A DNA stretch of 64,000 nucleotides from Escherichia coli (GTDB lineage: Bacteria > Pseudomonadota > Gammaproteobacteria > Enterobacterales > Enterobacteriaceae). Position numbers and translations under genes: made by a program. The notes below the pieces were generated by a model, which saw only the letters and a program-made list of their open reading frames with translations, had not been told where the DNA came from and ran no database searches. Positions 16,155 to 60,014 of this stretch are shown one piece after another (position 1 is the stretch's first letter; each line of letters opens with the position of its first letter). Location: the NCBI RefSeq assembly GCF_022846255.1, contig NZ_AP025682.1, one strand, 5' to 3'.

Positions 16155-16216
16155 GATGGGATACCTCTGAAGACAGAAGATAAAAGTGAAAACAAGTGTG
16201 ATGTAGTTGTGACGGG

Positions 16217-16693: not shown

Positions 16694-16707
16694 TGTTCCG
16701 GCCCCTT

Positions 16708-17217: not shown

Positions 17218-17284
17218 ATGAATGGAAGAATGCCCGGGGGAAGGGACAGCCGTGAGTCAGAACTGCGCTTTCAGGGAAACGGCA

Positions 17285-18384: not shown

Positions 18385-18409
18385 GGCCCCGGTCATAATG
18401 ACCGGGGCC
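18385..18409 (-). terminator. Rho-independent terminator-like hairpin 3' of the Ag43 gene
   Basis: Perfect 10-bp inverted repeat GGCCCCGGTC/GACCGGGGCC with a 5-nt loop, followed by TTTTA on the - strand, about 20 bp after the stop codon. Confidence 0.5.
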
Positions 18410-18430
18410 TGAAGGGGAGTGACCTGATTA

Positions 18431-21277: not shown

Positions 21278-21489
21278 CAGCTTTTCCTTACAGAGGGTGA
21301 ATAAAAAAGCCGGTACCCACAAATGTGGATACCGGCAGGTACAAAACAGCATGGTCAGATAAAGTGGTTTTTCCCGGACATAAATGCTTCCCCTCTCTCA
21401 TCCGCCTGAGAAGTATCAGTCCGTTGTGTGCAATTCCGTTCTGCATGATGAAGAGATTCAGCTGCCTTTTCGCAGGCCATTAACCACTA

Positions 21490-21545
21490 TAAACGATCGA
21501 TGGTGACGATCGATACCTGTTTTATCGATCGTTTTATTCTATTAA
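21490..21545 (-). promoter_or_regulatory. Ag43 phase-variation switch: three clustered GATC (Dam) sites in the flu regulatory region (OxyR/Dam epigenetic switch)
   Basis: GATC at 21495-21498, 21508-21511 and 21537-21540 within about 45 bp, roughly 220-260 bp upstream of the flu start codon; matches the known architecture of the agn43 regulatory region. Confidence 0.6.
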
Positions 21546-31345: not shown

Positions 31346-32227
31346 TGTAACCAAGTCCTGTAGAAGTCTGTCTCATAGAAATATGTTCCTGTGCAGTGAT
31401 ACTCTCTGTAGTAGTACTTGTAACTCTGTCCTTAACTCTCTCTTCAGTAATGTAGTCCCGCAACACCTGAATATAAATCTGTAATGTACACACACTGACT
31501 GTAACGTGCTTTGTTAAGTAATACCTGTTATTTCTTCTGTTATTTTTCCTGTTGTTTTCTGTATTTTGTTGTATGGAGTAATAACTCTTCTGAACCCGTC
31601 ATCACCTTTATAGCTAAGAGTATGACTTCGCCAGTGTTGATACTGTGGATAACGGTGATTAAGGAATTACTGTTAATGATCTGTTCCTGCAGCTCACCTG
31701 ATGAGTTTTGGTAGTAATACGTAAAAGAGTATGCCTTATGCCATTAAACAGCCTTACGGAATGTTGTTTAACCCTGTACCTCTGTTACTCATGTAGTACG
31801 TTGCGGAAAGCTACGTTAATTGTAATATCTGGTTATGGCGTTATGCCTTCAGTATTAAAAACATCTTTTACCGGAGAAACAGGGAAGTGGGGAAAGGCTT
31901 TCGGGATAACGTCAGGCCATTCTGACGGTATTACGTTAATCACAGTACAGGATAACGGGAGGGTAATGGAATTTTAAACCAGAGTAGTTCCACTGTTGTT
32001 CACTGGAAAAAGTGATTTCCCACGCGCGTTATAAACGCCTTTCCGCTTCAGTCTGGTTACCAGAGCTTCAGGCGTTATATGCGCTGTAACTGGCTGTTAC
32101 GTATGCTGTTCTCTGTCTGCTTCTGATACCCCTGGACGTCGTTACCGGAGGTCACCCTGCCTGATAACGTTTTCTTCAAAAATTACGCCAGCGCTTCTTC
32201 CTGTGTTACAGAACACGAGGAAGAAAC

Positions 32228-32827
32228 ATGAAGACTTACAACACCAATCCCGGTTACGAAATGGATCCCCAGCTCCTGACACACTTTAACCAGCATCTGG
32301 ATTCATTATTCGGGGTATATTCGAAACTGTTACCGTTCAGAATGGATTTTGCTTACCGAAAAAACACCCTCAGCTACAGGTGTGCCTGCAGGTACGCCAT
32401 GTGCGCGGAGATACTGCGACTGATTAACGAAGTGGGAGAGAAACTGGTCGGGTATGCCTGGGTAATGGAATATACGGAACGTAAAGGGCTTCACATTCAT
32501 TTTGTGGGCTATCTGAACGGTCAGAGCCACAGGAGTTCGTATCTGGTATCCAGATTGATGGGAGATATCTGGAGGCGGGTTACCGAGGGTGATGGTTACT
32601 ACCACTGGTGCCGGTTTAATAAAAATTATCCGGTAAACATTAACCACGTCATTCACTATTCAGATCACAAAGCGGTGAATGCCTTACGCTATGCCCTCAG
32701 CTACCTGGCCAAACGAGAACAGAAAGAATGTGGCATCATCCTGAAATGCAGCGGGCTTCCTGAAAAAAGTAACCGGGGTCGACCGCGACTGGGCAGCACC
32801 CTGCCGGAGACTTATTCTCTGGTGTAA
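32228..32827 (+). CDS. Putative HUH-type replication initiator-like protein (YagK/YfjJ, inovirus Gp2-like family)
   Basis: 199-aa ORF with a GAGGAAG RBS; HUH-like motif LHIHFVGY and downstream Tyr-containing motif YALSYLAKRE; family assignment from memory. Confidence 0.45.
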   Translation: MKTYNTNPGYEMDPQLLTHFNQHLDSLFGVYSKLLPFRMDFAYRKNTLSYRCACRYAMCAEILRLINEVGEKLVGYAWVMEYTERKGLHIHFVGYLNGQSHRSSYLVSRLMGDIWRRVTEGDGYYHWCRFNKNYPVNINHVIHYSDHKAVNALRYALSYLAKREQKECGIILKCSGLPEKSNRGRPRLGSTLPETYSLV

Positions 32828-33192
32828 GACCCTGAACGACAACTACGGGCTGGCGCTAATTGTTACGGTCGGTTCCGGAGGCCACTTCAGGGACTCTGCG
32901 CATTTTTTACGACATGGCTATTCCGTATGAACCATACGGAGATTTAACCATGGCACATTCTTTACCATTCCTTCCGGCAACCGATACAGCGCATCCCCCG
33001 ATGTCCATCCCTGCCTGCTGACAGTTTTTTACGCCGGTGGGCCATTGTGTGACAACCACAGTGCTGTAACAGCAACCAGCCTGCTTTACCCAAACTCCAG
33101 TCCAGATTTTAACTGAACCGCCATTCACCCCCTGACCACACTGCCCGTACCGGGACAGCTGTTGCCTGCGTGTCGTCTGGCGGCTGAGGAAT

Positions 33193-42428: not shown

Positions 42429-43739
42429 TTATTTTAATGGACTAATATCACTATTATTATCGCTATCTGTGATTTTTTCCCCATTCACGGAGATCATTCC
42501 CTGGATATATGAATCCCATAGATGTACGTCACCTTTATGAAAAATAATGCATGACATTGCGATTTTTTGTACTTTATATATCTGTTTATAGTATTCTTCT
42601 GAGTTTAATGGTGTATCTTTCAAGCTTTCATTCCTTGCTGGAAGAATCTTGACGGGACAGATAAAATCTGTATCCCCGAGTGAAAAGACATTAACTCCGG
42701 TTATAAAAAAGATACCCGGAATGTCTTGATGCAATCTCGTATTCCAGACTTGAGGATTAAACAGTTTATATGAATATTTATTTACATCTATATAATATTG
42801 ATGAGGACGCCAATCACTGATACCCGACATACTCATCGTCATATTGATAATTATATCAGGAATAGGTTTGAATAATACACTTAGAATGAACAATATGGCA
42901 GGAGGGAGTATTGCGATAGATAGCAAAGAGTTCAACCCTTCTTCTTGTTTTTCTTCTTGCTCATTTATCACTATCACACCTGGCAACATTCCTAAAAAGA
43001 TAAAAGCTAATGCAATGCAAGAAAATGATAGAAACTGTGATAAGATATCTGCACTCTCTTCAAGTCTGATCTTATTTGTCAAAAATAGCAGGGGGATAAT
43101 CTGAACAAGCCCGGGTAGAATTAAACATAAAGGAAGAGTGTATCTTATCCTGTTCCTGGGACGATATTGTTCGTGATTCTCGTGATTCTCGTGATTCTCG
43201 TGATTCTCGTGATTCTCGTGATTCTCAATGTTCTGTTCCCGAGGGGTATTTTTAGTGAATATTAATTTTTCTGAGAGGAAATATGAGACGAAATAATTAA
43301 ATAATACTATTAGTATTACTTCTGATATGGATGGATATAGAGTATTTTCTTCTGAAAAGGTAGACAGAACTGACTTTAGCACTAATGAAAAATAGAAAAC
43401 AACACTGTTCATATAGCAAATTATAGCAATTCTGTGCGCGATTCCTTTGTGATTTTTATAATAGTCTTTATGCCATGTATATGTATACACCAATACATGA
43501 GAAGATATAAAAATCAGTGAGGTTAGAGCCATTAGAGATAAAAGGATAAATATAAAGATAACACTTAAATAAAACTTTATGTCTATTGAGTCGAAAAACA
43601 AATCAAGTCTACCGAGTCCTTGCAGATAGAACCATATTGCAGATATGGCGCATCCTGTACTAAATACAGAAGACGTTAACATGGCGAGAAAAGCTTTATT
43701 ATTTAAATGTGAAAAGATAGATCTATTCATTATAAGCAC
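42429..43739 (-). CDS. Hypothetical polytopic membrane protein with an (ENH)6 His-rich repeat loop and a C-terminal soluble domain
   Basis: 436-aa very AT-rich ORF with multiple hydrophobic segments; 9-bp tandem repeat encodes ENHENHENHENHENHENH. Confidence 0.5.
   Translation of the reverse strand: MLIMNRSIFSHLNNKAFLAMLTSSVFSTGCAISAIWFYLQGLGRLDLFFDSIDIKFYLSVIFIFILLSLMALTSLIFISSHVLVYTYTWHKDYYKNHKGIAHRIAIICYMNSVVFYFSLVLKSVLSTFSEENTLYPSISEVILIVLFNYFVSYFLSEKLIFTKNTPREQNIENHENHENHENHENHENHEQYRPRNRIRYTLPLCLILPGLVQIIPLLFLTNKIRLEESADILSQFLSFSCIALAFIFLGMLPGVIVINEQEEKQEEGLNSLLSIAILPPAILFILSVLFKPIPDIIINMTMSMSGISDWRPHQYYIDVNKYSYKLFNPQVWNTRLHQDIPGIFFITGVNVFSLGDTDFICPVKILPARNESLKDTPLNSEEYYKQIYKVQKIAMSCIIFHKGDVHLWDSYIQGMISVNGEKITDSDNNSDISPLK
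43172..43225. repeat. 9-bp tandem repeat (CGTGATTCT)x6 inside the membrane-protein CDS (in-frame, encodes (ENH)6 on the - strand)
   Basis: Direct reading. Confidence 0.9.
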
Positions 43740-43945: not shown

Positions 43946-44707
43946 TCAGATATATTTTAATTTTGCTGATAGTTCTCGACATGCTTCAAGAACCAAAGTG
44001 GAATAATATTCTACTTTTTCTTTTGGCATTTGAATTTCCACACCACTAATGCTGATAGCAGCAATTGCTTCTCGAGCCTGATTAAACACCGGGGCGGCAA
44101 TGCAATAAATTCCTGGTGAATCTTCTGCGTTATCAAAAGCCCATCCTCGCTCACGAATACGTGCAAACTCTAGTATTAGATCAGATTTCCGAGTGATTGT
44201 CGTTTGCGTAAATCGAGGCAATGCCTCCTCAGGTAGTAAAGTGTCAATGACGTCTTGAGGTAACCATGCGCATAACGCTTTCCCCACCCCTGAGCTATGG
44301 AGTGGCAGCTTCTTACCTACCCACGTTCTGATACCAATTGGTTGAGTGCTTTCGAGTTTTAAGATATAGATTGGAGCGACTTCCTCAAGAATGCCTAAAT
44401 GGCAGATAAGATCAGTACTATCTCTCAGTTTTTCCAGCACCGGTCTCGCTACCTTACTTATGTCAAACTGTTCTAGCGAGCGATTTCCCCATTCATATAA
44501 TTTCAGTCCAAGGAAAAAACGCCCCCTTTCCTGACGTAACAAATGGTGTTCGACCAGAGCATTCAGTAAAGATGATGTGCTGCTTTTAGGCAGAGCCAGA
44601 TCTTGCTGGATTTGACTGAATGTGGCACCAGGAGAGTTGAAAAGATAATTGCAGATTCTGACTGTTTTATCGAGTGCTGGTACTGGTGTTCTTGTTTGAT
44701 TATTCAT
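43946..44707 (-). CDS. IclR-family transcriptional regulator
   Basis: 253-aa ORF with N-terminal HTH and C-terminal IclR effector domain; divergent from the catabolic operon. Confidence 0.8.
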   Translation of the reverse strand: MNNQTRTPVPALDKTVRICNYLFNSPGATFSQIQQDLALPKSSTSSLLNALVEHHLLRQERGRFFLGLKLYEWGNRSLEQFDISKVARPVLEKLRDSTDLICHLGILEEVAPIYILKLESTQPIGIRTWVGKKLPLHSSGVGKALCAWLPQDVIDTLLPEEALPRFTQTTITRKSDLILEFARIRERGWAFDNAEDSPGIYCIAAPVFNQAREAIAAISISGVEIQMPKEKVEYYSTLVLEACRELSAKLKYI

Positions 44708-45204
44708 AAAAAAATAACATATGATTTCTTACCAATGCTAAATAGTATACCCCAATCTTTATTAATGCATAGTGATGCTTAATCATTATGTTGCAGTTGA
44801 TCGACACAGGGGGACAAGAGTAGTTGTGTCACTGCCACATCACCCGGCATGCGATTTCACATCGGGATGTTCGAGAAGCATCAATGCTGCGCCCAAGATC
44901 CACCGAAAAGAAACGTGGGAATCACCGGCGGTGGGATTCATTGTCTATGCCCGTGTAGATTAGTGTGGATTTGCTGCACAGATGGTTCCGGTCTGAGAAA
45001 TGGGTAAATTCGTCGTTTACGACGGGAAGCTGCCTACACATGTTATACATCGTCTTCGTGTATCAACATGCTCCTATAAACTCGACTCAACTCACATTTT
45101 TCATTTCACATTGTAAAAACCTTTGACATGCAGAACCTTATTCTGATTCATTATATTCAACATGAAGAACTTTTGTTCCATATACAGAACTTAGTGAGAG
45201 CGAT

Positions 45205-46104
45205 ATGTTGACAGCGTTTAGAGGTATTTTTCCGCCGGTTCCTACTATTGTTGACGCACAGGGGAAACTGGATAAGACGGGTATGGCCCGAATGATTGAC
45301 CATGTAATAGAGAATGGTGCAAACGGAATGCTGATCCTAGGCAGTGGGGGCGAATTCTCACAATTTTCTTCCCAACAACGAAAAGAGATAGCAGCATTTT
45401 GTTTAAATCATGTAGATGGAAGAGTGCCTGTACTGGTGGGGGTTGCTTGTGCCGGGACAGCAGAAACTATTGAGCTGGGACGCCATGCTTATGAGCACGG
45501 AGCTGATGGTGTGCTGGTTGTTAATCCGTATTATGCAAAACTCAGCGATGATGCCCGGTTTATGCATTATAAATCTATTGCTGATACACTTGAAATCCCG
45601 GTGTTTCTCTATAACTTTCCTGATTTAACCGGCCAGGATATTGGACTTGAAGTCATTACCCGGCTGGCCCGGGAAGTTCCTAATATCGTGGGTATCAAAG
45701 ATACAATCGATAACATCAGTCATACCCGAGAAATTATCAACCGTGTACATTCATTTCGTCCGGATTTCATTATATTCAGTGGTTATGACGAATATATGCT
45801 GGACACTCTGTTACTGGGTGGTCATGGCGGTATTCCGGCAACATTCAATTTTGCTCCGGAAATCACACGGGGTATTTATCAGGCTGTTATGGAAAATGAT
45901 CTTGATAAGGCGCGTTATTTCCAACAACAACTGGCAAAATTGTCTCCGTTGTATGCGCTTGAGCAACCTTTCTTTGGGGTGATAAAGACCGCCATCAAAC
46001 TGAGTGGACTGGACATATCTACTGCAGTTATGGCACCGGCTCTTCCGCTCAGTGATGAGAAAATATCCAGAGTAAAATCCATTCTGGAACAAATTCATCA
46101 GTAA
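45205..46104 (+). CDS. DapA/NanA-family class I aldolase/lyase (dihydrodipicolinate synthase-like)
   Basis: 299-aa ORF with family motifs (GSGGEF, NPYY, Schiff-base lysine context IVGIKDT). Confidence 0.8.
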   Translation: MLTAFRGIFPPVPTIVDAQGKLDKTGMARMIDHVIENGANGMLILGSGGEFSQFSSQQRKEIAAFCLNHVDGRVPVLVGVACAGTAETIELGRHAYEHGADGVLVVNPYYAKLSDDARFMHYKSIADTLEIPVFLYNFPDLTGQDIGLEVITRLAREVPNIVGIKDTIDNISHTREIINRVHSFRPDFIIFSGYDEYMLDTLLLGGHGGIPATFNFAPEITRGIYQAVMENDLDKARYFQQQLAKLSPLYALEQPFFGVIKTAIKLSGLDISTAVMAPALPLSDEKISRVKSILEQIHQ

Positions 46105-46120
46105 TCACGAGGGACGCAGG

Positions 46121-47638
46121 ATGAATAACTCTCAGGTACTCAAACTCAATAATCTGGATGATGTTGTGATTGCCATAACAGAGCTTCCTGCCGGAAGCTG
46201 GTTGAAGGCAGAAAATATCGAAACGCGTGACCTTATTCCGGCCGGACACAAAATTGCTCTTCGTGATATTCCTGCTGGTAGTGCGGTTAAGCGCTATGGA
46301 CAAATTATCGGCTTTGCCACTCGTGATATCCGCCAGGGGGAACATATTCATGTTCATAATCTCGGTATGGGAAATTTTGAACGTGATTATGCCTGGGGAA
46401 TAGACAGCCATCTTCCTGAGCGGGATGTCCATCAGGATACTTTTATGGGGATCAGAAGAAAAGACGGGCGAGTGGCAACCCGTAATTTTATCGGTGTGCT
46501 GAGTTCGGTGAACTGTAGCGCAACCGTGGTCAGAGCCATTGAGGATCATTTCCGTACCCGAGGCCTGAGCGATTACCCGAATGTTGATGGTATTGTCGCA
46601 TTGCCTCAGAGCTTCGGCTGCGCCTTTGGCTCTAATACTGAAATGATGAAAGTCATGCGGAGAACGATAGCAGGCTATGCCACTCACGTAAACTTTGCCG
46701 GGATTGTGATAGTGGGACTGGGATGTGAATCATTCCAGATTAAGGACATGATGAATGCCCATGGACTACATGAAAACCCGATGTTTCATACACTGACAAT
46801 TCAGGAAAGTGGCGGAACACGCAACGCTATCGAAAAGGGTATTTCGTTTATTCTTGATATGCTGCCGGAAGCCAACAATGTTAAACGTGAACCTGTTCCA
46901 GTGTCAGAAATTATCCTGGCCCTTGAGTGTGGTGGCTCAGACAGTTACTCAGGAATTTCTGCCAACCCGGCACTCGGTTATGCAGTTGATCGTCTGGTCC
47001 GTCAGGGAGGGACGGCCATTCTGTCCGAAACATCAGAAATCTACGGAGCTGAGCATCTTCTGACACGCCGTGCTATTAATCGTGAAGTGGGAGAAAAGCT
47101 AATCCGCAGGATTAAGTGGTGGGAGGAGTACTGTAAACGTACGGGTAGTGAAATGAATAACAATCCCTCCGCAGGTAATAAAGCGGGAGGGCTGACTACT
47201 GTTCTGGAGAAATCACTGGGTGGAATCGCTAAAGCCGGGACAACCAGCTTAATGGATGTGTATGAATATGCTGAACCTGTAACAGCAAAAGGGCTTGTCT
47301 TTATGGATACCCCCGGGTACGACCCGATGGCGGTAACTGGGCAAATTGCCGGAGGCGCTAATCTACTGTGTTTTACCACGGGTAGGGGATCTGCCTTTGG
47401 AGCAAAACCCACGCCTTGTCTGAAACTGGCGACCAATAATGCATTATGGCAACGACAGCGTGATGACATGGATTTAAACTGTGGCACGATCGTTGATGGT
47501 GAAGAAACGATTGAACAGGTAGGGGAACGTATTTATCAGAGAATTATTGAGCTGGCTTCAGGTAACCGTAGCCGAAGTGAAGAACTTGGGTATGGGAGTC
47601 TGGAATTTGTTCCTTGGATAATGAACTCAATAATGTAA
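46121..47638 (+). CDS. UxaA/GarD-family sugar-acid dehydratase (altronate/galactarate dehydratase-like)
   Basis: 505-aa ORF with a GAGGGA RBS; N-terminal SAF-like domain and C-terminal dehydratase domain by recalled similarity. Confidence 0.7.
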   Translation: MNNSQVLKLNNLDDVVIAITELPAGSWLKAENIETRDLIPAGHKIALRDIPAGSAVKRYGQIIGFATRDIRQGEHIHVHNLGMGNFERDYAWGIDSHLPERDVHQDTFMGIRRKDGRVATRNFIGVLSSVNCSATVVRAIEDHFRTRGLSDYPNVDGIVALPQSFGCAFGSNTEMMKVMRRTIAGYATHVNFAGIVIVGLGCESFQIKDMMNAHGLHENPMFHTLTIQESGGTRNAIEKGISFILDMLPEANNVKREPVPVSEIILALECGGSDSYSGISANPALGYAVDRLVRQGGTAILSETSEIYGAEHLLTRRAINREVGEKLIRRIKWWEEYCKRTGSEMNNNPSAGNKAGGLTTVLEKSLGGIAKAGTTSLMDVYEYAEPVTAKGLVFMDTPGYDPMAVTGQIAGGANLLCFTTGRGSAFGAKPTPCLKLATNNALWQRQRDDMDLNCGTIVDGEETIEQVGERIYQRIIELASGNRSRSEELGYGSLEFVPWIMNSIM

Positions 47639-47705
47639 TAACACAGGGCAGAGTTTATCCTGCCCTGTTGAAGTAAACACCGTTTTAGATAATTAGAGGT
47701 GAATA

Positions 47706-48713
47706 ATGGAACAGAAACCTGTGTTGGGAATTTTTTTAGGTGAAGCTGCCGGTATCGGACCAGAATTGATTGCTAAGGTTGTTGCTGATGGTACTGTCTA
47801 TAAATATTGCAGACCCGTTCTGATTGGTGATGCCCGTGTTCTTGCTCTTGGACAAAAGATTGCGGGTGTTCATTTTCAATGGGATGTAATAAGTGACCCA
47901 TCAGAGGCAGACTGGAGCACAGGAAATGTACCATTACTTGATTTAAAAAATTTCAACCCCGAAAAACTAACTATGGGGACCATTGATACCGATTCAGGTT
48001 ATGCAACCGGGGAATCATTGGTAACCTGTATGTCATTACTCAAATCAGGAAAGATTGATGGTTTTGTTTTTGCTCCATTGAATAAAGAGGCGTTCAAGAA
48101 AGGGGGCTGGGATATTGAAGACGAACATTATCTGTTTGCAGAGCAGTTAGGATGCCTGGATAGACCTCGCGGCCTGTTGAATGTCCTGGATGATCTCTGG
48201 GTTTTCCGTGTGACCGGACATATTCCGTTCAAAGATATTGCCAGCCATATTACTCCAGAAAATGTTAGCCGTTCGATTCAGTTATGCTATGACACACTAC
48301 GTATGGCAGCTATTGAAAATCCGCGAATTGCAGTTGCTGCACTTAATCCCCACGCCGGGGATGGTGGAACCTGCGGCACCGAAGAAATAGACGTGCTCAT
48401 TCCAGTAATTGAAAGTTTTCGAAAGAAAGGAATGGACATGTATGGGCCAGTTCCAGGTGACACCATTTTTATTCATGCGTTTAATCATGAATATGATGCG
48501 GTTGTTACCCTGTTCCATGACCAGGGACAAATTGCTACTAAACTGCATTCCTTTGACGTGGGAATAACTGTTGCCGCAGGACTTCCGTTCGCTATTACAA
48601 CACCAGAACATGGCACTGCATTTGATATTGCAGGTAAGGGGATCGCAAAAACAATGGCTACAGAGAGGGCTATTGCCGTGGCGGCCAGAATGGCTTCTAC
48701 AACACATAAATAA
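47706..48713 (+). CDS. PdxA-family NAD-dependent dehydrogenase/decarboxylase (4-hydroxythreonine-4-phosphate dehydrogenase-like)
   Basis: 335-aa ORF; PdxA-like motifs (NPHAGDGG, HDQG). Confidence 0.7.
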   Translation: MEQKPVLGIFLGEAAGIGPELIAKVVADGTVYKYCRPVLIGDARVLALGQKIAGVHFQWDVISDPSEADWSTGNVPLLDLKNFNPEKLTMGTIDTDSGYATGESLVTCMSLLKSGKIDGFVFAPLNKEAFKKGGWDIEDEHYLFAEQLGCLDRPRGLLNVLDDLWVFRVTGHIPFKDIASHITPENVSRSIQLCYDTLRMAAIENPRIAVAALNPHAGDGGTCGTEEIDVLIPVIESFRKKGMDMYGPVPGDTIFIHAFNHEYDAVVTLFHDQGQIATKLHSFDVGITVAAGLPFAITTPEHGTAFDIAGKGIAKTMATERAIAVAARMASTTHK

Positions 48714-48983
48714 AAATTCATAATAGCAGATAATATAATGTCTAATCTATACAGATAGATGTGAATATTATCTGCGTTATAATAAACTGTATAAGGCTAT
48801 TATAAATAACAGTCGGTGTTTTGATAAGTTGCTGGTTGTTATATCTTTAAAACGAGTTGATGATATTTATTTACTAGATATTCAGTGCGATTATAGCAGT
48901 ACTGTATCGCAAGAAAATAGCAGTGCTGGGGAAGTAGAAAGAATAAATTGCGATTTGCATGCTCATAGATAAGGATAGATCTC

Positions 48984-50342
48984 ATGTATTCAGAATCATT
49001 TGTGATGATAAGTGGGCTTGTTGCAATAGTTATACTTATCATCTTGATCACCCGATTTAAGCTTCATCCTTTTTTTTCATTGCTTATATCGTCTGTATTT
49101 TTGGGAATTGTGAACAATATTGGAGTGGCGAAAAGTGTAGATATATTTACGCACGGGTTTGGTAGTCAACTGTCTGTCACGGGGGTAGTTATCGGCTTAG
49201 GCGCAATGTTGGGGGGGCTATTGGTACAGTCTGGAGGAGGGGACAAAATAGCCGATATTATTATTGGGTCTAGAAAAATTGTTTGGATGCCTCTGTGTAT
49301 TGGTATAGTTTCGTTAATCATCGGTCTACCTAACTTGTTTGAAGTTACTTTTGTACTGATGGTACCCCTTGTGTTCTCTATTACCAAACGTTTGGGGTTA
49401 CCTGTTCTCAGAGTTGCACTCCCAATGTCTGCAGGATTAATGACAGCTCATGCGTTATTACCGCCTGGTCCGGCAACTATTATCGCTGCTACGGCTTATG
49501 GTGCCAGCATCGGAGAAACTACGCTTTATGGGGTGATTATTAGTATACCTGTTCTACTCTCAGGAGCTTATCTTTTCCCAAAAATAATGCACAAACATCT
49601 TAACGTGGGAGAACCTTTGGCACTGAATGAAACTGAACATAGACGGGGAAATAACGAACGTCAATTATATCGCCAACCATCGCTGACTGTCGCTTTGATA
49701 ACAGTTATGATCGCCCCTTGTCTGATGATTGTTGGGACTATTGGACTTGACTTTTTGCCAAAAACAGGTGTGGTCACAGAGGTATTCCAGGCACTAGGCA
49801 ATCCAGTAATAACTCTTGGACTTGCTCTGGTTTATGCCATGATATTTCTGGGACGGGGAGTGGGTTTTAGTAATGAAGAAATCCTGTCTATCAGTAAGAA
49901 AAGTATTGTGCCTATTGTTGGTTTGTTGCTAATTATCGGTGGAGGCGGTGGATTAAAAAACATACTAACAGCAATTGGTCTAAGTGATATTATCAGTAAC
50001 TTTGCTACGGATTGGTCTATTCCTCCGCTATTATTTGCATGGCTGGTGGCAGCTATTTTCCGCATTGCGCTTGGCTCTGGAACGGTGGCGGTCTCAGCTT
50101 CAGGAGGAATCGTTGCCGCGTTACTTACAGCACATCCAGAAACTAACGCAGCTCTATTGGTACTTTCAACTACGACTGGGGCAATGATTTTTTCACATGT
50201 CAGTGATGGGGCATTTTGGTTATTCAAAGAATACTTTGGACTTAGCGTACCACAAACTATTCGCACATGGAGTTATTTAGTCACGATACAGTCCATTGTC
50301 GGGCTTATAGGTGTATTGGTTCTAGGCGCTATTCTCAGTTAG
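48984..50342 (+). CDS. GntP-family sugar-acid permease
   Basis: 452-aa hydrophobic ORF with GntP-like topology and motifs. Confidence 0.7.
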   Translation: MYSESFVMISGLVAIVILIILITRFKLHPFFSLLISSVFLGIVNNIGVAKSVDIFTHGFGSQLSVTGVVIGLGAMLGGLLVQSGGGDKIADIIIGSRKIVWMPLCIGIVSLIIGLPNLFEVTFVLMVPLVFSITKRLGLPVLRVALPMSAGLMTAHALLPPGPATIIAATAYGASIGETTLYGVIISIPVLLSGAYLFPKIMHKHLNVGEPLALNETEHRRGNNERQLYRQPSLTVALITVMIAPCLMIVGTIGLDFLPKTGVVTEVFQALGNPVITLGLALVYAMIFLGRGVGFSNEEILSISKKSIVPIVGLLLIIGGGGGLKNILTAIGLSDIISNFATDWSIPPLLFAWLVAAIFRIALGSGTVAVSASGGIVAALLTAHPETNAALLVLSTTTGAMIFSHVSDGAFWLFKEYFGLSVPQTIRTWSYLVTIQSIVGLIGVLVLGAILS

Positions 50343-50427
50343 TGGTTCTGTATTCAATATATAAGAAAGCAATATCAAGTTTTAACATCTTTAATTTAAT
50401 AGATATAGTATTAAAGGAGAGTAATTT

Positions 50428-51693
50428 ATGTCCTCCAATGAGAAAGCAACAAATATAAGATGGAGAATATTTTTTGTACTTTTTCTTCTTGTTGTTGTCA
50501 GTATGATTGATCGAGCCTCAATATCTATAGCTATGCCTACTATCGCTAAAGATTTGGGATTAAGCGATACGATGCAGGGATTAATACTAAGCGGTTTTTT
50601 CTGGACTTATGCTTGTATGCAAATACCCGGTGGGTTTCTGGCCGATAAATTTGGGGCAAGAATTGTACTGACATGTTCTGCCATTATTTGGGGAACTGCA
50701 GAAGCCTTATTAGGATTATGCCCAACAGGTTTCGCTTTACTTGCTGCTAATCTATTGCTTGGTGCAAGTGAAGCACCTGTGTTTCCCTCAGGCGCTAGAC
50801 TTAATGCAATTTGGTTAAATAAAAATGAAAGAGCTCGTGGAGCAACATTAATGGATGCCGGAGGTCCATTTGGGGCTGCAATTGGTGGAATATTAGTAGC
50901 TGAAATGATGCTTTATTTTGCATCGTGGCGGGTTACATTCATTATCTGTGGTGTTGCGGCTATCACTCTGGGGTTAATAGCTTACTGGATTATTCGCGAC
51001 AAACCTGAAGATTCACCAAATGTAAATGATAAAGAATTAAGTATTATTAATCTCGATCGTGTTGAGCAACATATAGTAGCAGAAAACAATGAGCCATTAT
51101 TAAAGGTTATTCCTCTACGTTCTTTTATTGGTATGCTTTTAGGTCGTTGTTCATGGGCAATGTGTTTCTTTGGTTTATTAACCTGGGGACCAGGATATCT
51201 TACACGAGCATTAAATCTGGATTTAAAAGCTGTTGGTTTTGCCACAATGATTATATTTTGCGCAGGTGGTTGTGGTAGTCTTTGTGGCGGATGGCTGGCA
51301 GATAAACTCGCAAGTAAAGGATTTGGGCGAGCTAGAACGTGTAAATTTCTATTAACTGTATCAGGTATCTGTACACTAATATCATTTGCTTTATTACCAA
51401 GCATACCAGATGTAAAAACATCAATTATTCTGCTGTCCTGCGCCGCGTTTGTTTTGATGTGGGGTAGTATGTACTGGACGTTTCCTCCTTTATTAGCTCC
51501 CCGTTCCCGTGTAGCTACTGTCGGGGGCATGATGAATATGGCTGGAAGTGTTGGAGGTATTTGCATTCCACTATTGGTAGGACTTATTTTGGATGTGACG
51601 AACTCATTCAATCCTGTACTCTACTTTTTTGCTGGTTGTGCTGTAATATTTATTTTAATGACTAATATTATCGATTTACGACACGTGCGATAG
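50428..51693 (+). CDS. MFS transporter (anionic sugar/sugar-acid type)
   Basis: 421-aa ORF with an AAGGAGAG RBS; 12 TM segments. Confidence 0.75.
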   Translation: MSSNEKATNIRWRIFFVLFLLVVVSMIDRASISIAMPTIAKDLGLSDTMQGLILSGFFWTYACMQIPGGFLADKFGARIVLTCSAIIWGTAEALLGLCPTGFALLAANLLLGASEAPVFPSGARLNAIWLNKNERARGATLMDAGGPFGAAIGGILVAEMMLYFASWRVTFIICGVAAITLGLIAYWIIRDKPEDSPNVNDKELSIINLDRVEQHIVAENNEPLLKVIPLRSFIGMLLGRCSWAMCFFGLLTWGPGYLTRALNLDLKAVGFATMIIFCAGGCGSLCGGWLADKLASKGFGRARTCKFLLTVSGICTLISFALLPSIPDVKTSIILLSCAAFVLMWGSMYWTFPPLLAPRSRVATVGGMMNMAGSVGGICIPLLVGLILDVTNSFNPVLYFFAGCAVIFILMTNIIDLRHVR

Positions 51694-51702
51694 GAGATAA
51701 AC

Positions 51703-52653
51703 ATGAACATCAAGCCACTAAATTTATATGATGGCCCTGTAATTGATGCGCATCATCACTTCTGGGATCCGATAGAAAATGATCATCCTTGGCTAAAGCC
51801 GGATGTTTTAATTCCTTTTAGATATGGTGATTATACGGCGATTAAGAAAAAATATTATCCTGAAGATTATTTTGCAGATGTAGGTGATATTAATGTCGTT
51901 GAAACCTGTTATATGGAGACTGAATGGAATCCAGCGGATCCATGTGGTGAAAGCGATTTCATTACATCAGTAGCAAAAATGACAGGTTATCCAAATGCTG
52001 TTGTCGGACAGGCTTGGTTAAATCATGATGATATAGATTCTGTGTTGAAGATGCAGAGTTCATATGAGTTGATGCGAAGCATCAGGCATAAGCCAGAGGG
52101 GCCTGATAAACCAGAGGATGTTGGATCGTATACAACTCTGATGAGTGATGAAAGATGGCGATATGGGTATTCATTACTTTCAAAATACAATCTAATGTTT
52201 GATCTGCAAACCCAGTGGTGGAATTTGCATGAAGCTGTAAAACTGGCAAATGATTTCCCAGACACAGTAATAATCCTTAATCATACAGGGCTCCCTGCAC
52301 AACGTTCTGTTGAAGGGTTGGCCGGGTGGCATTCAGCAATGGCTTCTTTGGCTGAATGTGAAAATGTGATGGTTAAAATATCGGGTATAGGTTTAAAAGG
52401 GATTCCATGGACAGTGGAGAATAATCTATGGATAATATCTGAAACGTTATCAATGTTTGGTCCTGACAGGGTCATGTTTGCAAGTAATTTCCCCGTGGAC
52501 AGTCTTTGTGGCAGTTTCAGTGATATATTTCATGGCTTTATGACTGTTTGCGAGATGAAAGGGTATTCACATGCGGCTCAGCGGAAAATGTTTCATGACA
52601 ATTGTAAGAGAATCTATCGAACAATCCCACCAAGTGAATTGAAGGAAGTATAG
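51703..52653 (+). CDS. Amidohydrolase-2 family metal-dependent hydrolase (lactonase/decarboxylase-like TIM barrel)
   Basis: 316-aa ORF with an AGGAGA RBS; N-terminal HHHFWD metal-binding motif. Confidence 0.65.
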   Translation: MNIKPLNLYDGPVIDAHHHFWDPIENDHPWLKPDVLIPFRYGDYTAIKKKYYPEDYFADVGDINVVETCYMETEWNPADPCGESDFITSVAKMTGYPNAVVGQAWLNHDDIDSVLKMQSSYELMRSIRHKPEGPDKPEDVGSYTTLMSDERWRYGYSLLSKYNLMFDLQTQWWNLHEAVKLANDFPDTVIILNHTGLPAQRSVEGLAGWHSAMASLAECENVMVKISGIGLKGIPWTVENNLWIISETLSMFGPDRVMFASNFPVDSLCGSFSDIFHGFMTVCEMKGYSHAAQRKMFHDNCKRIYRTIPPSELKEV

Positions 52654-54207: not shown

Positions 54208-54311
54208 GATACAACCCCTGTCTGGAAATAAGGGGGCAAGAACACCGTCTCAGATCTGTTTTCAATGAAAACAGATCATTCTGGAACTACTCGTCCCAGT
54301 TACTTGAAGCG

Positions 54312-55397
54312 ATGTCCATTCTTCGTCCGAACGAAAATCTTGCAGCAGCTCTCAGCGATGATTCAGAGTTCAGCAATAGCATGCAGTTCAGGTTAATCCT
54401 GGCAAAGACTGTTGATGCAGGAGCCCCGGTTCCAGCGGATCTGGCTCTGACGTGGGTGACAAACCATATTGAATACTCATTACGAACCCCCGCCCGCCGC
54501 TGTGCGAAAGAATTTGCTGCACTATTTAAACGGCGTTACACCCTTAAATACGGTGAAGGGATGGTAGTGAAGCCGAATAAAGCGCGTCTGCGTTTAGATT
54601 ACACGCCTGCAAGTCCCAGTTTGAGAGGTATTCGGCTTCCTGTTCCTGACTTGCCTGATCCAAGTGCATTGAAAGGCCCTGTTCAGAAGCTTATGACTCT
54701 TGCTGATATATGCACAGATGAACTGGATGCTTACAGTCGTTACCTTGGTAGAAAAGGCACTTCAGCAAATGATACCGCTGCAATTTTGTTGCTGCCTTCA
54801 GAAATCGTTAACGAAAGCGCAGATAAATTATTAAGTGCATTCAAACGCTGGGCTGATGACGCGATCCTCAGTAAGGGGGGAGTAGTTTCAGTTGCTGACT
54901 TCTGGTCACACATGAATGCTACCTGTCCGGCAAAGATCAACAAAAAAGAGGCCGACTTGATGCAGGCCTTTGCACAGAAAATGGGGTACTGCCTGGCTCC
55001 TGACCCCTATTACCACCACGTAAAAGCAAATGTCGATGGTGTTCTTGTTTTATTCCCTGCTGGTGAAAGTGGCCGCTTCTCTCCTTCTCCTGAATTTATC
55101 ACAGCTGTATTGACGCTCCGATTAGGTTCGGTAGTCGCCTTGATTGACAATTCTTTCGATCAAGCCGAACAGAAAGTGCTTGAGAATGCCATCAACAACA
55201 ATGTCAGCTTCAGCGATGATGAAAAGCGCTCTCTGCACGCATATTTAACGTGGCAGCTTCATACCCCGGCGAATATGACGGGAATGAAAAGCCGGATTGA
55301 ATTACTCGGTGCAGCGGAAAAATCAGCTGTGGGTAAGGTTATCGTTAGTGTCGCTTGCTCTGACGGCAGAATTACGCCTGCCGAAATCAAACTGTAG
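54312..55397 (+). pseudogene. IS-flanked gene fragment, possibly a TerB-like domain protein, 3'-truncated by the IS911 insertion
   Basis: 361-aa ORF lying exactly between the IS2-group right end and the IS911 left end. Its stop codon TAG lies within the first bases of the IS911 terminus. The TerB-like call rests only on the weak pattern DNSFDQAEQKVLENAINNN...DDEKRSL. Confidence 0.35.
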
Positions 55398-55464
55398 TGG
55401 CACACTGAATTTGGCCACCTGAACAGAGGTGATATGCTCACCTCAGAACAACACAGGTGCTCCA

Positions 55465-56633
<1,169 letters not shown>

Positions 56634-57056
56634 CCACTACAAATATCATTATATTGGAATAATTATAAAACTGAACAAAATGGTCAATGTAATCTGGTTA
56701 ATTTATAAATATTTACATTGCGTGATGATATTTAATTCCAGTGTTAAGTAATGTCACATGCCTATTATTGGTTACTACTTTGTAGGTGTTTTGGTTCGGC
56801 GTTAATATCATTGGTCATAATCACCTGTGAAAGTTTATTCTTGAAATGTTATAGGTATATTACTTGCAATTAAAAATGAGAAATTTATTATTATTGTGTT
56901 TTGCAAATATAATAATTAAAAATTTATTATAAATTATGATTAGAACTGACAATATAAAAGAATAATAAAACTCAATATGAAAATAATTATCATCTGGTAT
57001 GATACTTTTGCTGTTGATTACAGGAATAAAGTGTCAGAATAATATTGTTATTGGGT

Positions 57057-57084
57057 AAAAAAAGCCTCCACTATATGTGGAGGC
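57057..57084 (-). terminator. Strong Rho-independent terminator-like hairpin on the - strand in AT-rich DNA downstream of the integrase gene
   Basis: Perfect 8-bp inverted repeat GCCTCCAC/GTGGAGGC with loop TATAT, followed by a 7-T tract on the - strand. Confidence 0.45.
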
Positions 57085-57758
57085 AAACCCTTAGATAGTT
57101 CTATTGAGGCAAGTATGTTATAAATCTGCCTTATCTTTTATAGCATATAAAGATATGTATGCTATATTGTTTTTTGAAGAAATTTTTCCAGAAATTACAG
57201 TAATACAAGAAATATTAACCGGTGTGATTTTTGGATGTTTAATAAGTACAGTGTAGTGTACTTATATTTTTGTAATAAAGATGAACGCGTCCTTTAGATA
57301 AACTGAAAAATATTAAGCATGTCTCATGTGGTTTTCTGAATCAAAACTCTTTTCAGTCTTTGGTTTTTTGTTAAAAACAGGTTTATTGCAAGGGTGTTGT
57401 TGTGAAATGTGTTTTGGTGTCGTTGTGATTTTATGGTGATAATGTGAATTTTTATCCTTTCAAGATGGCTCCCTGGACGTTAAATACAGTGGAAATTTAT
57501 ATTAAGATATAAATATAACTATTGCGTTATTTAAATTATTGTCTATTACAGCTCCAGTTAATAGAGCCTGAAGTAATTTCTTAGTATTTCATCATAAGCG
57601 TTTATCTATCGTCTCTTTCTAAATTAACCGGTCGTATTACAAGGTGCTGAATCTGATTAAGGAATGATACTTAGGGGATTATGGCTGACTTAATAATTAG
57701 ATAACTGATAAATGACTATCAGGGGGATATCGTTAAGTCAGCCTTTAAAATCAAGCGA

Positions 57759-58949
57759 TTATATAGCTGGTGACTCTTTTCGAAGAGCATCAAGGTAGTC
57801 AGCGTACCATTGCATCATTTCTCGTCTTCCTTCAAGGTAACGAGCATGGTTGTATGTACCACGAATGCTGTTTTTGTCCGTATGTGCAAGTTGCATTTCA
57901 ATCCATGCACTATTGAATCCTTGCTCGTGTAGAACAGTACTCATTGTATGACGAAATCCATGCCCGGTAGCTTTTTTGTCATAGCCAATCTTCTTCAAAA
58001 CCATATTGACGCTTGCATCGCTGATAGGCCTGTTAACATCATTTCTTCCGGCAAAGATGTATCTGTATCTTCCAGTCAGTTCTTTGAGGATTTGCAGAGA
58101 CTGGATTGCCTGATCTGACAGAGGGACGATATGCTCCTTCCTCATTTTCATCCGGGTCGGAGGAACTTCCCATATCTTTTGGGTAAAATCGATCTCACAC
58201 CATTCCCCCATACGTAATTCTACTGTTCTCAGCCCTGTGAGCATCAACAATTTTGTAGCTTCACGGGTTACAATACTGCCGGTGTAGTTTTCGAGTTTGT
58301 ATAAAAACTCTGGTAGTTCAGGAGGAAGCAGGAAAGGGTAATGTGTTCGCTTATAGCTTTTCATTGCTATAACCAGATCAGAAGCTGGATTGTATCGTGC
58401 CCGACCTGTAACAATGGCATACCGAAACACTTCACCACATCGTTGGCGAACTTTATTAGCTAGCTCGCAGGCTCCTCGGCTTTCGATACGCTGAAGAACT
58501 GCGAGAAGTTCAAGAGGTTCGATTTCACTAATGGGTCTGTTTCCAATGTAGGGAAACACATTATTTTTGAATGCTCTGTCGACATAATCAGCGTAGCTGG
58601 CAGACCAGCCTGAAACTTTTGCGTTGTACCACTCGGTGGCGATTGCGGCAAAAGTTCTTCCTTCGGAAAGGTTTTTCTCAAGATTTTCAGCTTTCTTGAC
58701 TTCACCGGGATCTTTACCATCGGCATGTATTTTCTTGGCTTCATCCCGACGTTTGCGAGCTTCAGCCAATGTAATAGTTGGATAGGTGCCAAATGATAGT
58801 TTCTTTTCCTTCCCCGCATAGTGGTACTTCATTCGCCAGTACTTTGAGCCGTTAGGATTGACCTGAAGGTAGAGCCCACCACCATCGGCAATCTTATAAA
58901 TTTTATCTTTGGGTTTGGCTGTTTCAACTTGTCGAGCTGTCAGTGGCAT
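57759..58949 (-). CDS. P4-type tyrosine integrase
   Basis: Start placed at MPLTARQVETAKPKDKIYKIADGGGLYLQV (typical P4-Int N-terminus); C-terminal catalytic motifs HGFRHT...Y. Confidence 0.8.
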   Translation of the reverse strand: MPLTARQVETAKPKDKIYKIADGGGLYLQVNPNGSKYWRMKYHYAGKEKKLSFGTYPTITLAEARKRRDEAKKIHADGKDPGEVKKAENLEKNLSEGRTFAAIATEWYNAKVSGWSASYADYVDRAFKNNVFPYIGNRPISEIEPLELLAVLQRIESRGACELANKVRQRCGEVFRYAIVTGRARYNPASDLVIAMKSYKRTHYPFLLPPELPEFLYKLENYTGSIVTREATKLLMLTGLRTVELRMGEWCEIDFTQKIWEVPPTRMKMRKEHIVPLSDQAIQSLQILKELTGRYRYIFAGRNDVNRPISDASVNMVLKKIGYDKKATGHGFRHTMSTVLHEQGFNSAWIEMQLAHTDKNSIRGTYNHARYLEGRREMMQWYADYLDALRKESPAI

Positions 58950-59076
58950 CTGGGGGCCTCGCAATAGATTGACCAAGATGTGCCCCTAAATAGGCCCCCA
59001 AATGTGACTTGATTTACGTTCCCCTGAGGAGAATTAAGGCGACTATTTGAGTAACATAAGTAAGGGTATGTGCTGA

Positions 59077-59640
59077 TTATAAAGGCTTTTTGTGGGGTAT
59101 GGTAGATTTCAGGAGAGGTGTGCATGGTGTCCCCTGCAGAATGATGTAAACACCTGCTGCGAAGGTAATAGATTGCATGATGGAGAACATGAACCAGTTT
59201 TTACCACCACTAAGCTCTTTCACCACATCTGCACGCGCAAACAGGCACGTCACCAGGAAAATTATGCTCATGGTAAAAGAGATAGCAACCGGCGTGTCGC
59301 GCAAGAACAGCAGACTTTTCGGCACATTCATGTCTTCAGTCGAGTGGTCTTTATTACCAAACTTGCTGCCGATGAAACCGGCCAATACATAATATAATGT
59401 TGAGAAGTGGCCGATGGCAACGTCATCAGAACCGGTCACTTTCTTCATGTACGGATGCGCAATAGCCGGGAAAAAGACCATTGCCACGCCAACAACCAAA
59501 GAGCCAACGGCTATAAGCGTAATGCCGGTCATGCCTGCTGTTGCCAGAATTACCGCTACCATCATCGACATAAACAACGTGTGATGACCGGTCAGGAAGA
59601 TAAATTTCCACGGTGTGAAACGGGCAATCAGAATGTTGAT
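59077..59640 (-). pseudogene. Internal fragment of a PTS ascorbate-family (SgaT/UlaA-like) EIIC gene
   Basis: Minus-strand translation ...FLTGHHTLF...IGH...STEDMNVPKSLLFLRDTPVAISFTMSIIFLV...ILQG parallels the central region of UlaA-type IIC proteins; no N-terminus, and it diverges before the C-terminal half. Confidence 0.4.
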
Positions 59641-59642
59641 AA

Positions 59643-60014
59643 CCATCAGAACCGCTGGACTATCCCTCGGAAACGTTAGCTGAGATCCGCCATACCGGCG
59701 CACGAGCCGGGCTGGCATTTAATCCGGCGACCCCAATCGACGCCTGGCAATATCTAGCGTCTGAGCTGGACGGCGTGATGGTGATGACCTGTGAGCCCGA
59801 TGGGCACGGACAGCGGTTTATTCCCTCTATGTGCGAGAAAATCCAAAAAGTACGCACGGCTTTTCCTCAGACCGAGTGCTGGGCCGACGGTGGAATTACG
59901 CTGGCGGCAGCACAGCAACTGGCTGCAGCCGGGGGGCAGCATATGGTGATTGGGCGCGTCTTGTTCTTTTCATCTGACTATCGCGCGACCTTAGCTCAAT
60001 TCGCCACCCTGTAA
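59643..60014 (+). pseudogene. 3' fragment of a ribulose-phosphate 3-epimerase-family gene (SgcE/Rpe-like)
   Basis: In-frame translation ...TLAEIRHTGARAGLAFNPATPIDAWQYLASELDGVMVMTCEPDGHGQRFIPSMCEKIQKVR...ECWADGGITLAAAQQLAAAGGQHMVIGRVLF matches the C-terminal half of Rpe (GLVFNPATP ... GFGGQSFIP ... VDGG ... AAGAD). A TAA at 59640-59642 closes the frame upstream. Confidence 0.55.

Follow-up and report, generated by a model that had tools for sequence, protein, structure and literature searches.

The integrase gene and its att core

We analysed a 64-kb stretch of Escherichia coli DNA (the window), in which an integrase gene lies between AT-rich non-coding DNA and the broken end of a PTS pseudogene; the features discussed below are collected in Table 1. 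The integrase ORF in its full extent spans 57759..58976 on the - strand, and it contains neither an internal stop nor a frameshift. The earlier note had described the gene as a P4-type integrase, and this description was borne out by three Pfam domains, namely Arm-DNA-bind_3 (PF13356, E = 3.7e-28), Phage_int_M (PF22022, 1.3e-33) and Phage_integrase (PF00589, 3e-26), as well as by 48% identity over the full length to IntS of K-12. In a full-length ungapped-core alignment with IntS, the catalytic motifs Arg, His-x-x-Arg, His and Tyr were kept (LRT.ELR, HGFRH, LAH and RG.YNHA), and domain matches in the PDB were to CPS-53 and CP4-like integrases. The coding region showed no nucleotide difference from the gene in locus L002 (WP_001131472.1). 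Within the assembly collection, 11,757 blocks contain the identical protein, and in all 10 places that were read it was encoded downstream of yfdC and a tRNA-Arg. We are thus dealing with the integrase of the genomic island that E. coli carries at argW, a heterobivalent tyrosine recombinase of the P4/IntS type with the 3' end of tRNA-Arg(CCU) (argW) as its usual target.

Table 1. Features of the window, with positions counted from its first nucleotide, and sequences of two recombination sites
Feature	Position	Strand	Description
Left limit of argW-island DNA	32000..33000		homologous switch in a shared YagK/YfjJ-type backbone module; located by sliding identity
TerB-family gene of the argW island, internal fragment	54245..55392	+	99.6% identical to AHB24
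IS3-family element	55393..56641	+	orfA and orfB; HTH_Tnp_1 and rve domains
AT-rich non-coding island DNA	56642..57758		25-33% GC, ~1.1 kb
Intrinsic-terminator-shaped hairpin	57057..57084 (57084→57057)	-	GCCTCCAC-ATATA-GTGGAGGC then T7; 8-bp stem with 6 G-C pairs, 5-nt loop
Three consecutive hairpins, invariant 112-nt block ending in the terminator	57057..57168	-	candidate short non-coding transcript or 3' end
Nested hairpin directly after the int stop	57684..57745	-	GGCTGACTTAA … TTAAGTCAGCC, inner CTGATAG/CTATCAG; conserved
Integrase gene (int)	57759..58949	-	intact, 396 aa + stop; ATG at 58949
Segment between core and int start	58950..59123	-	174 nt; presumed P' arm and int promoter region; travels with the island
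att core	59124..59139 (59139→59124)	-	16 nt, CTGCAGGGGACACCAT; argW/KplE1 core, 174 nt upstream of the ATG
Crossover interval	59132..59139	-	8-mer CTGCAGGG, common to the core and the native EIIC gene; from a four-way alignment
PTS ascorbate-type EIIC pseudogene, 5' part	59140..59718	-	Pfam EIIC-GAT; broken at the pseudo-attB
attP of the integrase			…TTTCATTCCTGCAGGGGACACCATGCAC…
EIIC site			…CATCATTCTGCAGGGTGTGCGC…

No tRNA had been recognised within 200 bp of the integrase start, and an ARAGORN scan extended this to the whole 64-kb window, in which neither a tRNA nor a tmRNA was found. In canonical loci with the identical integrase, a complete tRNA-Arg(CCU) was located 175 nt upstream in 12 of 12 cases (ARAGORN). 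These canonical relatives fill the interval from yfdC-argW-int to dsdC, and in AHB24 the island is flanked by perfect direct repeats of the core, the second copy being next to dsdC. The att site, for which the earlier note had proposed a comparison with related islands, is present in the window as a core with the same 16 nt as in the argW-linked copies. This core is also identical to the published core of KplE1/CPS-53 (Panis et al., PMC2951348). Its first 15 nt (59125-59139, - strand) are the exact last 15 nt of argW and lie 175 nt upstream of the ATG; they are the sole match to the argW 3' end in the window, where 0.07 would be expected by chance. In the K-12 annotation, CPS-53 begins 15 nt before the argW 3' end. 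A second core copy was not found in the window with up to 2 mismatches allowed.

A tRNA 3' fragment upstream of the integrase had been named in the earlier note as evidence against its own reading. Such a fragment is present in the form of the last 15 nt of argW, but the reading survives: the fragment is the att core of the island itself, carried along with it, and no resident tRNA gene left it behind, so that it accounts for the arrangement instead of speaking against it. The segment between this core and the integrase start was identical to the canonical argW-linked copies except for one SNP in locus L004. By analogy with attL of KplE1 (PMC2951348), we presume that it comprises the P' arm and the int promoter region; a search with a 6-nt seed detected no arm-type direct repeats between the core and the ATG.

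The junction with the EIIC pseudogene

On the far side of the core, the window continues into a gene fragment that matches positions 96-268 of the 394 positions of the EIIC-GAT profile. Past the break, its reading frame stays open into island DNA and ends at 59077, and the fused ORF of 213 aa was present in three independent assemblies. The uninterrupted EIIC gene has the sequence …CATT-CTGCAGGG-TGTGCGC… at this point and reads through the 8-mer in frame, as Leu-Gln-Gly codons; the native continuation …LQGVRMVIAEIVPAFKG… was found in SCEC020001. Homology to the native gene starts exactly at 59132 in all matches listed of 2,541 matching genomes, and argW-island homology ends at 59139-59142. Since the native gene reads through CTGCAGGG, the crossover lies inside the shared 8-mer. 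What the earlier note had put forward, a rearrangement or an integration at a non-tRNA site, is borne out and can be seen base by base, and with a crossover within the core of the element, a short identity and a target that is intact elsewhere, the site has the properties of a pseudo-attB. The 8-mer, which should turn up by chance ~1.4 times in 64 kb, is by itself a weak target, and an additional factor must have helped, or else the event must be very rare. Two further copies of CTGCAGGG in the window, at 26758 and 35006, were considered as att sites and set aside as chance matches because they had no further att similarity.

The junction was carried by 0 of 5,426 complete E. coli genomes and was absent from the GTDB representatives. 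It was found, 100% identical, in three independent assemblies (Logan DRR322657, ENA ERZ929318 and Logan DRR727809), and a junction-bearing contig of 26.6 kb was 100% identical over 8.3 kb. ARAGORN detected no tRNA-Arg in the junction-bearing loci L023 and L024.

At its other end, as far as ~33 kb, the window matches the kps/pheV-region island of strain 82.0312 at ~100% identity, and from ~32 to 36.5 kb it is 99.6-100% identical to the argW island of AHB24. Some 26 kb of argW-type island are left in the window, within the kps/pheV region. Homology to canonical islands is present in the TerB-family fragment at 54245-55392 and resumes exactly at 56642, the PapB … DEAD-helicase part of the island having been replaced in this lineage by the IS3-family element, which we take to be IS911-like. 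On either side of the inserted DNA there is sequence of the kps/pheV-region island, and the chromosomal argW and EIIC sites are in direct orientation to each other. We therefore interpret the arrangement as an insertion and not as an inversion, and on the same two grounds an exchange of the two sites within one molecule is disfavoured.

We consider it likely that the argW island was recombined by its integrase into a pseudo-attB inside the kps/pheV-region island and was trimmed thereafter. A copy of the argW island would have recombined via the att core, its partner being a CTGCAGGG that occurs by accident in the EIIC pseudogene, a target located within another island in the kps/pheV region, and strand exchange would have taken place inside the 8-bp identity. 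The product would be an attL-like junction consisting of the EIIC 5' part, the 16-nt core, the 174-nt arm/promoter segment and int, with no tRNA gene. The far half of the incoming island, attR and the EIIC 3' part would subsequently have been lost by a homologous crossover at ~32-33 kb, where the CP4-type backbone modules that both islands possess form direct repeats, and the IS3-family element would have cut the island further short at 56641. The identity of integrase and core, the argW context of the canonical copies, the exact interval of the crossover, the existence of the junction and the homologous switch are shown by the data; that the integrase catalysed the event, and that the steps followed one another in this order, is what we infer. 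The window holds one junction only: no reciprocal junction was found in it, with neither a second core nor an EIIC 3' part. The predicted reciprocal hybrid 27-mer was absent from JGI metagenomes, and two guessed remainder proteins (from predicted remainder ORFs) had no record. On the basis of the sliding identity, we propose that the missing reciprocal junction reflects a secondary deletion.

Other origins of the junction were weighed against this one. The two partners share 8 bp only, with no further similarity in their flanks, and the region is rich in IS elements and has other breakpoints, all of which would suit an integrase-independent, illegitimate joining by microhomology at CTGCAGGG during a larger rearrangement of the argW and pheV regions. 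We nevertheless regard such joining as improbable: the break coincides exactly with the recombination core of the island, on which the integrase acts; the 16-nt core is complete and, like the arm segment, is kept at canonical spacing; and for a random break to meet an 8-bp match at that exact position would be a rare accident indeed. It is also conceivable that int still resides at argW and that an element with EIIC-sgcR-yjh genes was inserted between int and the tRNA gene, giving a tandem array of the kind known from O26:H11 str. 11368, in which this int has the core next to it and a torI prophage after that. This is highly improbable here, as the DNA past the core is the coding interior of EIIC, which in other genomes reads through the 8-mer uninterrupted, as the other side of the window enters the kps/yghD (pheV) neighbourhood and not dsdC, and as L023 has no tRNA-Arg in the 13.5 kb beyond the core. 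The contigs in question do break at IS copies, which might suggest an assembly chimera in place of a biological junction, but the identical junction in three independent assemblies from different projects, and its position in unique sequence instead of a repeat, make the probability of a chimera negligible.

The terminator and the AT-rich DNA beyond int

In canonical islands, an AT-rich spacer sits between int and a gene for a PapB-family regulator, PapB being found ~1.27 kb past int in canonical loci. Outside the 120 nt that adjoin int, no copy of this AT-rich region within E. coli falls below 98.6% identity. Among the matches listed of 270 matching RefSeq genomes, none had an annotated feature in the DNA corresponding to 56642..57758, and a six-frame Pfam search of this region revealed no coding remnants. 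The hairpin with a 7-T tract that had been reported ~670 bp past the integrase stop, with no ORF in between, was located here, at 675 nt past the stop; there was no ORF of >25 aa between the two on the - strand. With a folding energy of -14.6 kcal/mol, it has the G+C-rich stem-loop and the directly adjoining U tract of a Rho-independent terminator, and it is one of only three perfect, T-tailed hairpins with an 8-bp stem on both strands of the 64 kb. Its stem and loop were invariant in 11 relatives, in which the length of the T-run alone varied. It is a genuine intrinsic-terminator-shaped element that was inherited with the non-coding AT-rich spacer of the island.

What the element terminates was considered in several ways. 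The earlier note had taken the hairpin as a hint of an unannotated transcript; the hairpin itself is real and invariant, but no RNA family, convincing promoter or covariation was found to go with it. A short island-encoded ncRNA of ~110-130 nt, running over the three-hairpin block from roughly 57185 to 57057 (-) and ended by the terminator, appears doubtful to us. No ORF is present there that could be terminated, and the fold of 57055-57175, with its three consecutive hairpins, has a z-score of -4.1. The 112-nt block is free of SNPs in all 11 relatives, in contrast to its variable flanks, the surrounding AT-rich DNA having ~30 SNPs per 1.1 kb in L004. For any one position, the chance of an SNP-free stretch of this length is ~0.05, and the invariance is weak support for such a transcript. 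Rho prefers C-rich, G-poor sites, and a stretch of that composition at ~57445-57395 (-) could let Rho stop read-through from int before the hairpin is reached. On the other side of the argument, the covariance-model search that the earlier note had called for, run with Rfam on 56400-59400 at a permissive E-value, returned only a sub-threshold Arrc14 match on the terminator stem (31 bits against a threshold of 99 bits, Rfam 15). At the gathering threshold, Rfam found only an unrelated IS102 RNA in the whole window and nothing in the terminator region. There was no convincing sigma-70 promoter just upstream of the block (11 promoter-like sites were found and 9.5 expected by chance), sequence diversity was too low for covariation, and the hairpin was absent from 100,044 species representatives, in which an exact-stem scan gave only an unrelated Terribacillus match. 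That the terminator is the relic of a decayed gene is possible, if far from assured, and that it serves to stop int read-through is unlikely. An ORF of 25 aa at 57131-57208 (-) was rejected as a gene, since at 57169, within the ORF, relatives differ by an indel of 1 nt.

Directly after the int stop, the nested hairpin has a fold z-score of -5.1. In strain R1, whose argW island is divergent, it is retained, a G-C pair having become G-U in the int-sense RNA; in that island, homology is gone ~130 nt past the int stop. This hairpin is probably a 3' element of int.

Related systems and meaning of the arrangement

The IntS-argW module of KplE1/CPS-53 in E. coli K-12 (Panis et al., PMC2951348) uses the same target tRNA gene and the same core CTGCAGGGGACACCAT, and the two integrases have the same domain architecture at the 48% identity given above. 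In KplE1/CPS-53, int is directly beside attL and is transcribed away from the tRNA, as it is in the integrase's own element. This element differs in that it is no P22-like defective prophage but a ~68-kb genomic island, with modules for defence and metabolism and others of the CP4 type; no TorI-type excisionase gene was seen beside its integrase, and its attL is in the present case away from argW. As far as PMC7545054 describes the variable argW-dsdCXA genetic island of E. coli (Moritz & Welch 2006, cited therein), canonical relatives of the integrase occupy exactly that interval, whereas the DNA retained in the window is in the kps/pheV region. Secondary attachment-site integration has been described for the site-specific elements SGI1 (PMC2297512) and ICEBs1 (PMC3715440). 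There is likewise a strongly preferred primary site and a secondary site that has only a short identity to the core, within which the junction falls. For SGI1 and ICEBs1, the two junctions are known, as is the experimental context, whereas one junction survives in our case and we infer the catalysis. The integrases of satellite phage P4 (leuX) and of the CP4-57 type combine Arm-DNA-bind_3, central and catalytic domains in the same way, and their targeting of tRNA-gene 3' ends from an int at the island edge is also true of the argW island integrase. Unlike in P4, no P4 replication or capsid-size genes were beside the integrase in the loci read.

It would be a stronger claim, and a quite unlikely one, that the 112-nt block is a regulatory RNA specific to the argW island and, at the same time, that this IntS-type integrase is active on non-tRNA sites which share only CTGCAGGG with its core. 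If true, strand exchange would be assigned to the first 8 of the 16 nt of the core, and islands that target tRNA genes would be shown to be able to nest within others. Should the integrase have catalysed the event, the junction would map, by a natural experiment, the crossover region within the argW core to CTGCAGGG; it would also exemplify how one tRNA-targeting island came to be part of a second and was cut back by homologous recombination and IS activity. No general picture is changed by this; on the likely reading, the locus is an ordinary case of integration at a look-alike site. For annotation, the case is useful in that, where an island integrase has no tRNA gene next to it, the short att core is still readable and reveals where the element came from.

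The integrase, its usual home and the att core

The integrase is a protein of 396 aa with Arm-DNA-bind_3, Phage_int_M and Phage_integrase domains (Pfam), the P4/IntS-type set of three. Its nearest PDB relatives are solved domain structures of CPS-53 and CP4-like integrases, and an end-to-end alignment with K-12 IntS gave 48% identity with the catalytic motifs kept. ARAGORN detected no tRNA or tmRNA across the entire 64-kb window, in line with the earlier note, which had recognised no tRNA near the integrase and had suggested integration at a non-tRNA site. This suggestion was right, and it is explained by a junction at the att core that the note had overlooked.

The usual home of this integrase is argW, the tRNA-Arg(CCU) gene. 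Among 5,426 complete E. coli genomes, 242 records matched the 2.5-kb region 56642-59140 at ≥99% identity (megablast), and strains 201609 and AHB24 share the order yfdC, tRNA-Arg, int, ∼1.27 kb of unannotated DNA, a PapB-family gene and a defence-rich island. The index of the assembly collection lists the exact integrase protein for 11,757 blocks, with yfdC preceding it in 10 of the 10 places examined; in all 12 canonical loci, tRNA-Arg(CCU) lies 175 nt upstream of the integrase start codon (ARAGORN). The AHB24 island spans ∼68 kb, and its far end next to dsdC bears a perfect second copy of the 16-nt core CTGCAGGGGACACCAT. The argW-dsdCXA interval is a known variable region according to a reference listed in PMC7545054. 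O26:H11 represents the ordinary alternative, in which a torI prophage comes after the core, in tandem at argW. In its str. 11368 (locus L001, 9112-10302 and 10566 onward), this lambdoid/P22-like prophage lies between integrase and argW, and the annotation treats the same integrase as a pseudogene and gives it an internal stop; its sole coding-region difference from the window falls at window position 58284. The cargo behind this integrase is highly variable. The most divergent island copy (L004, ENA ERZ28761330 contig_8, 12459-19116) carries a full-length 76-aa PapB-family gene, a 175-aa protein without family match and, where defence genes would be, a 1,311-aa Peptidase_S6 (SPATE) autotransporter.

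Comparison with related islands located the att site in the window at the same core, 174 nt from the integrase ATG. The first 15 nt of the core equal the 3'-terminal 15 nt of argW, a match that occurs once in the window versus 0.07 expected. The same core has been published for the KplE1/CPS-53 prophage, which targets the same tRNA gene (PMC2951348), and the K-12 annotation begins CPS-53 15 nt ahead of the 3' end of argW. Since the 174 nt up to the ATG also agree with canonical copies, the island attL is intact, the missing part being the remainder of the tRNA.

Coordinates of features in the window
Feature	Position	Strand	Remarks
Stretch collinear with strain 82.0312 island	4505-34283		∼99-100% identity
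IS102 RNA (Rfam RF00124)	21296-21532	−	70.7 bits vs gathering score 46; inside CP4-type module near Ag43 and GTPase genes
HEN-repeat protein	42429-43739	−	436 aa, predicted multi-pass membrane protein; HEN tripeptide run (…NIENHENHENHENHENHENHEQY…); low-GC DNA; no match in two comparison islands
Sugar-acid catabolic cluster	43946-52653		Low GC (34-44%); IclR regulator, DHDPS-family lyase, UxaA-family dehydratase, PdxA-family dehydrogenase, GntP and MFS transporters, amidohydrolase
TerB-family gene of argW island, internal fragment	54245-55392		1.15 kb
IS3-family element	ends 56641		Between TerB-family fragment and last argW-island stretch
Final 2.5 kb of argW island			To the right of IS3-family element
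Terminator hairpin	57084→57057	−	Seven T follow
Invariant block	57168→57057		Three hairpins, terminator last; fold z-score −4.1
AGTGT insertion	57250-57254		5 bp, local tandem duplication
Nested hairpin past int stop	57745→57684		Fold z-score −5.1
Integrase ORF	57759..58976	−	Start ATG 58949
att core	59139→59124	−	16 nt
Start of EIIC homology	59132
EIIC pseudogene/sgcE' head-to-head join	59719-59775		EIIC on − strand, N-terminus missing
sgcE' fragment	59775-60014	+	C-terminal piece of sgcE-like ribulose-phosphate 3-epimerase

The junction with an EIIC gene

Past the core, the window runs on inside a PTS ascorbate-type EIIC gene (Pfam EIIC-GAT, positions 96-268 of 394), followed by a truncated sgcE-like epimerase, sgcR, yjhI and yjhH. 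The EIIC homology starts at the same position in all matches listed among 2,541 matching genomes. Eleven complete E. coli genomes have the EIIC'-sgcE'-sgcR arrangement without the integrase; the head-to-head join of EIIC' and sgcE' is an older rearrangement.

We mapped the junction with a four-way alignment. Around a shared 8-mer, the native EIIC gene reads …TTTACATCATT CTGCAGGG TGTGCGCATGG…, argW reads …GGTTCGATTC CTGCAGGG GACACCATGCACACC…, and the window reads …TTTACATCATT CTGCAGGG GACACCATGCACACC…. The window therefore combines the EIIC left flank with the argW right flank, which places the exchange inside the 8-bp identity. In the native gene these 8 nt code for Leu-Gln-Gly inside …VYIILQGVRMVIAEIVPAFKG….

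None of the 5,426 complete E. coli genomes has the junction, nor do the GTDB species representatives. A fused 213-aa ORF followed by the integrase was present in three independent assemblies (Logan DRR322657, ENA ERZ929318 and Logan DRR727809), each 100% identical to the window over the junction. This identical join rules out an assembly chimera; a small lineage really carries the junction.

The AT-rich DNA and its terminator

The strong − strand hairpin reported in the earlier note is real: GCCTCCAC-ATATA-GTGGAGGC followed by seven T, with a folding energy of −14.6 kcal/mol, one of three of its kind in the 64 kb. It lies in 1.1 kb of 25-33% G+C between the IS end and the integrase stop, where neither strand has an ORF above 50 aa and none of the frames resembles a Pfam family. 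The claim that no ORF separates integrase stop and hairpin was likewise borne out (− strand maximum 25 aa). Matches listed among 270 matching RefSeq genomes had no annotated feature there. Compared with L004, the most divergent relative, this DNA has ∼30 SNPs in its 1.1 kb; the integrase gene, at 1.2 kb, has 5. Overall constraint on the AT-rich DNA is therefore low. The AGTGT insertion is shared with L023, a junction-bearing locus outside the window, and is missing from 10 of 10 canonical relatives aligned; homopolymer lengths at 57056 (the terminator T-run) and 57169 differ among relatives.

The terminator has three readings of similar, low probability. It may be the relic of a decayed gene, by a small margin the likeliest of them; relatives carry a frameshift in the small − strand ORF directly upstream, which was rejected as a gene. 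That it ends a short ncRNA is only a little less likely. The block that it closes is invariant in 11 relatives; counting against a defined sRNA are the lack of an Rfam match for the region, a frequency of promoter-like sites that does not exceed that of shuffled sequence, with none of the sites well placed, too little diversity among copies for covariation, and absence of the element outside this island type. In canonical islands int and an orphan PapB-family regulator gene, both on one strand, are parted by the AT-rich DNA, and a stop for int read-through ahead of the PapB-family gene is the third reading, slightly less likely again. Given these points and the frameshifted ORF, we kept all three.

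Of this DNA, divergent argW islands keep only the 120 nt after the int stop. One of them is the island of strain R1 (L030, 1335-4119), whose related argW integrase is WP_001131474.1; there, the shared stretch gives way to a transposase remnant and DUF262-type defence genes. The nested hairpin in this part has a single change, from G-C to G-U, which fits a structure in the int-sense RNA. Since R1 shares only ∼130 nt, this conserved 3' hairpin marks the boundary between recombination module and variable cargo.

Island mosaic and proposed history

The 82.0312 island lies beside kpsF and yghD, the pheV neighbourhood. Sliding identity was ∼100% to 82.0312 up to ∼33 kb and 99.6-100% to the AHB24 argW island from ∼32 to 36.5 kb, a clean switch with both stretches overlapping in a shared YagK/YfjJ-type module. 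With argW-island DNA on the right, ∼26 kb of it is thus embedded in a pheV-region island, bounded by a homologous crossover (left) and the att core (right). In complete E. coli genomes, the nearest counterparts of the sugar-acid cluster reach only ∼87% identity; a same-lineage ENA contig has the cluster at 100% identity.

Because the window + strand runs opposite to K-12 coordinates in the pheV/yghD region and in the argW region alike, the argW core and the EIIC site are in direct orientation. If the two recombined within one molecule, the outcome would be excision or duplication of ∼0.65 Mb and not an inversion; the flanks observed on both sides come from the pheV region. In the simplest history, a circle of the island, excised or incoming, would first have integrated at the EIIC pseudo-site. 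Deletion between directly repeated backbone modules would next have removed the far half of the island together with attR and the 3' part of EIIC, and in a third step an IS may have mediated loss of the PapB-to-helicase segment. No reciprocal junction was found in the window, in JGI metagenomes or with predicted remainder proteins, which is consistent with the proposed deletion, yet leaves the integration as a step that we infer.

Tyrosine recombinases generally need identity in the overlap region, as stated in PMC2817482, and secondary-site integration, proposed here for the argW island, is documented for SGI1 (PMC2297512) and ICEBs1 (PMC3715440). The mechanism would therefore be conventional. 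The integrase-bearing element is already known and widespread as an island integrase, and the secondary-site junction is a rare yet conventional variant.
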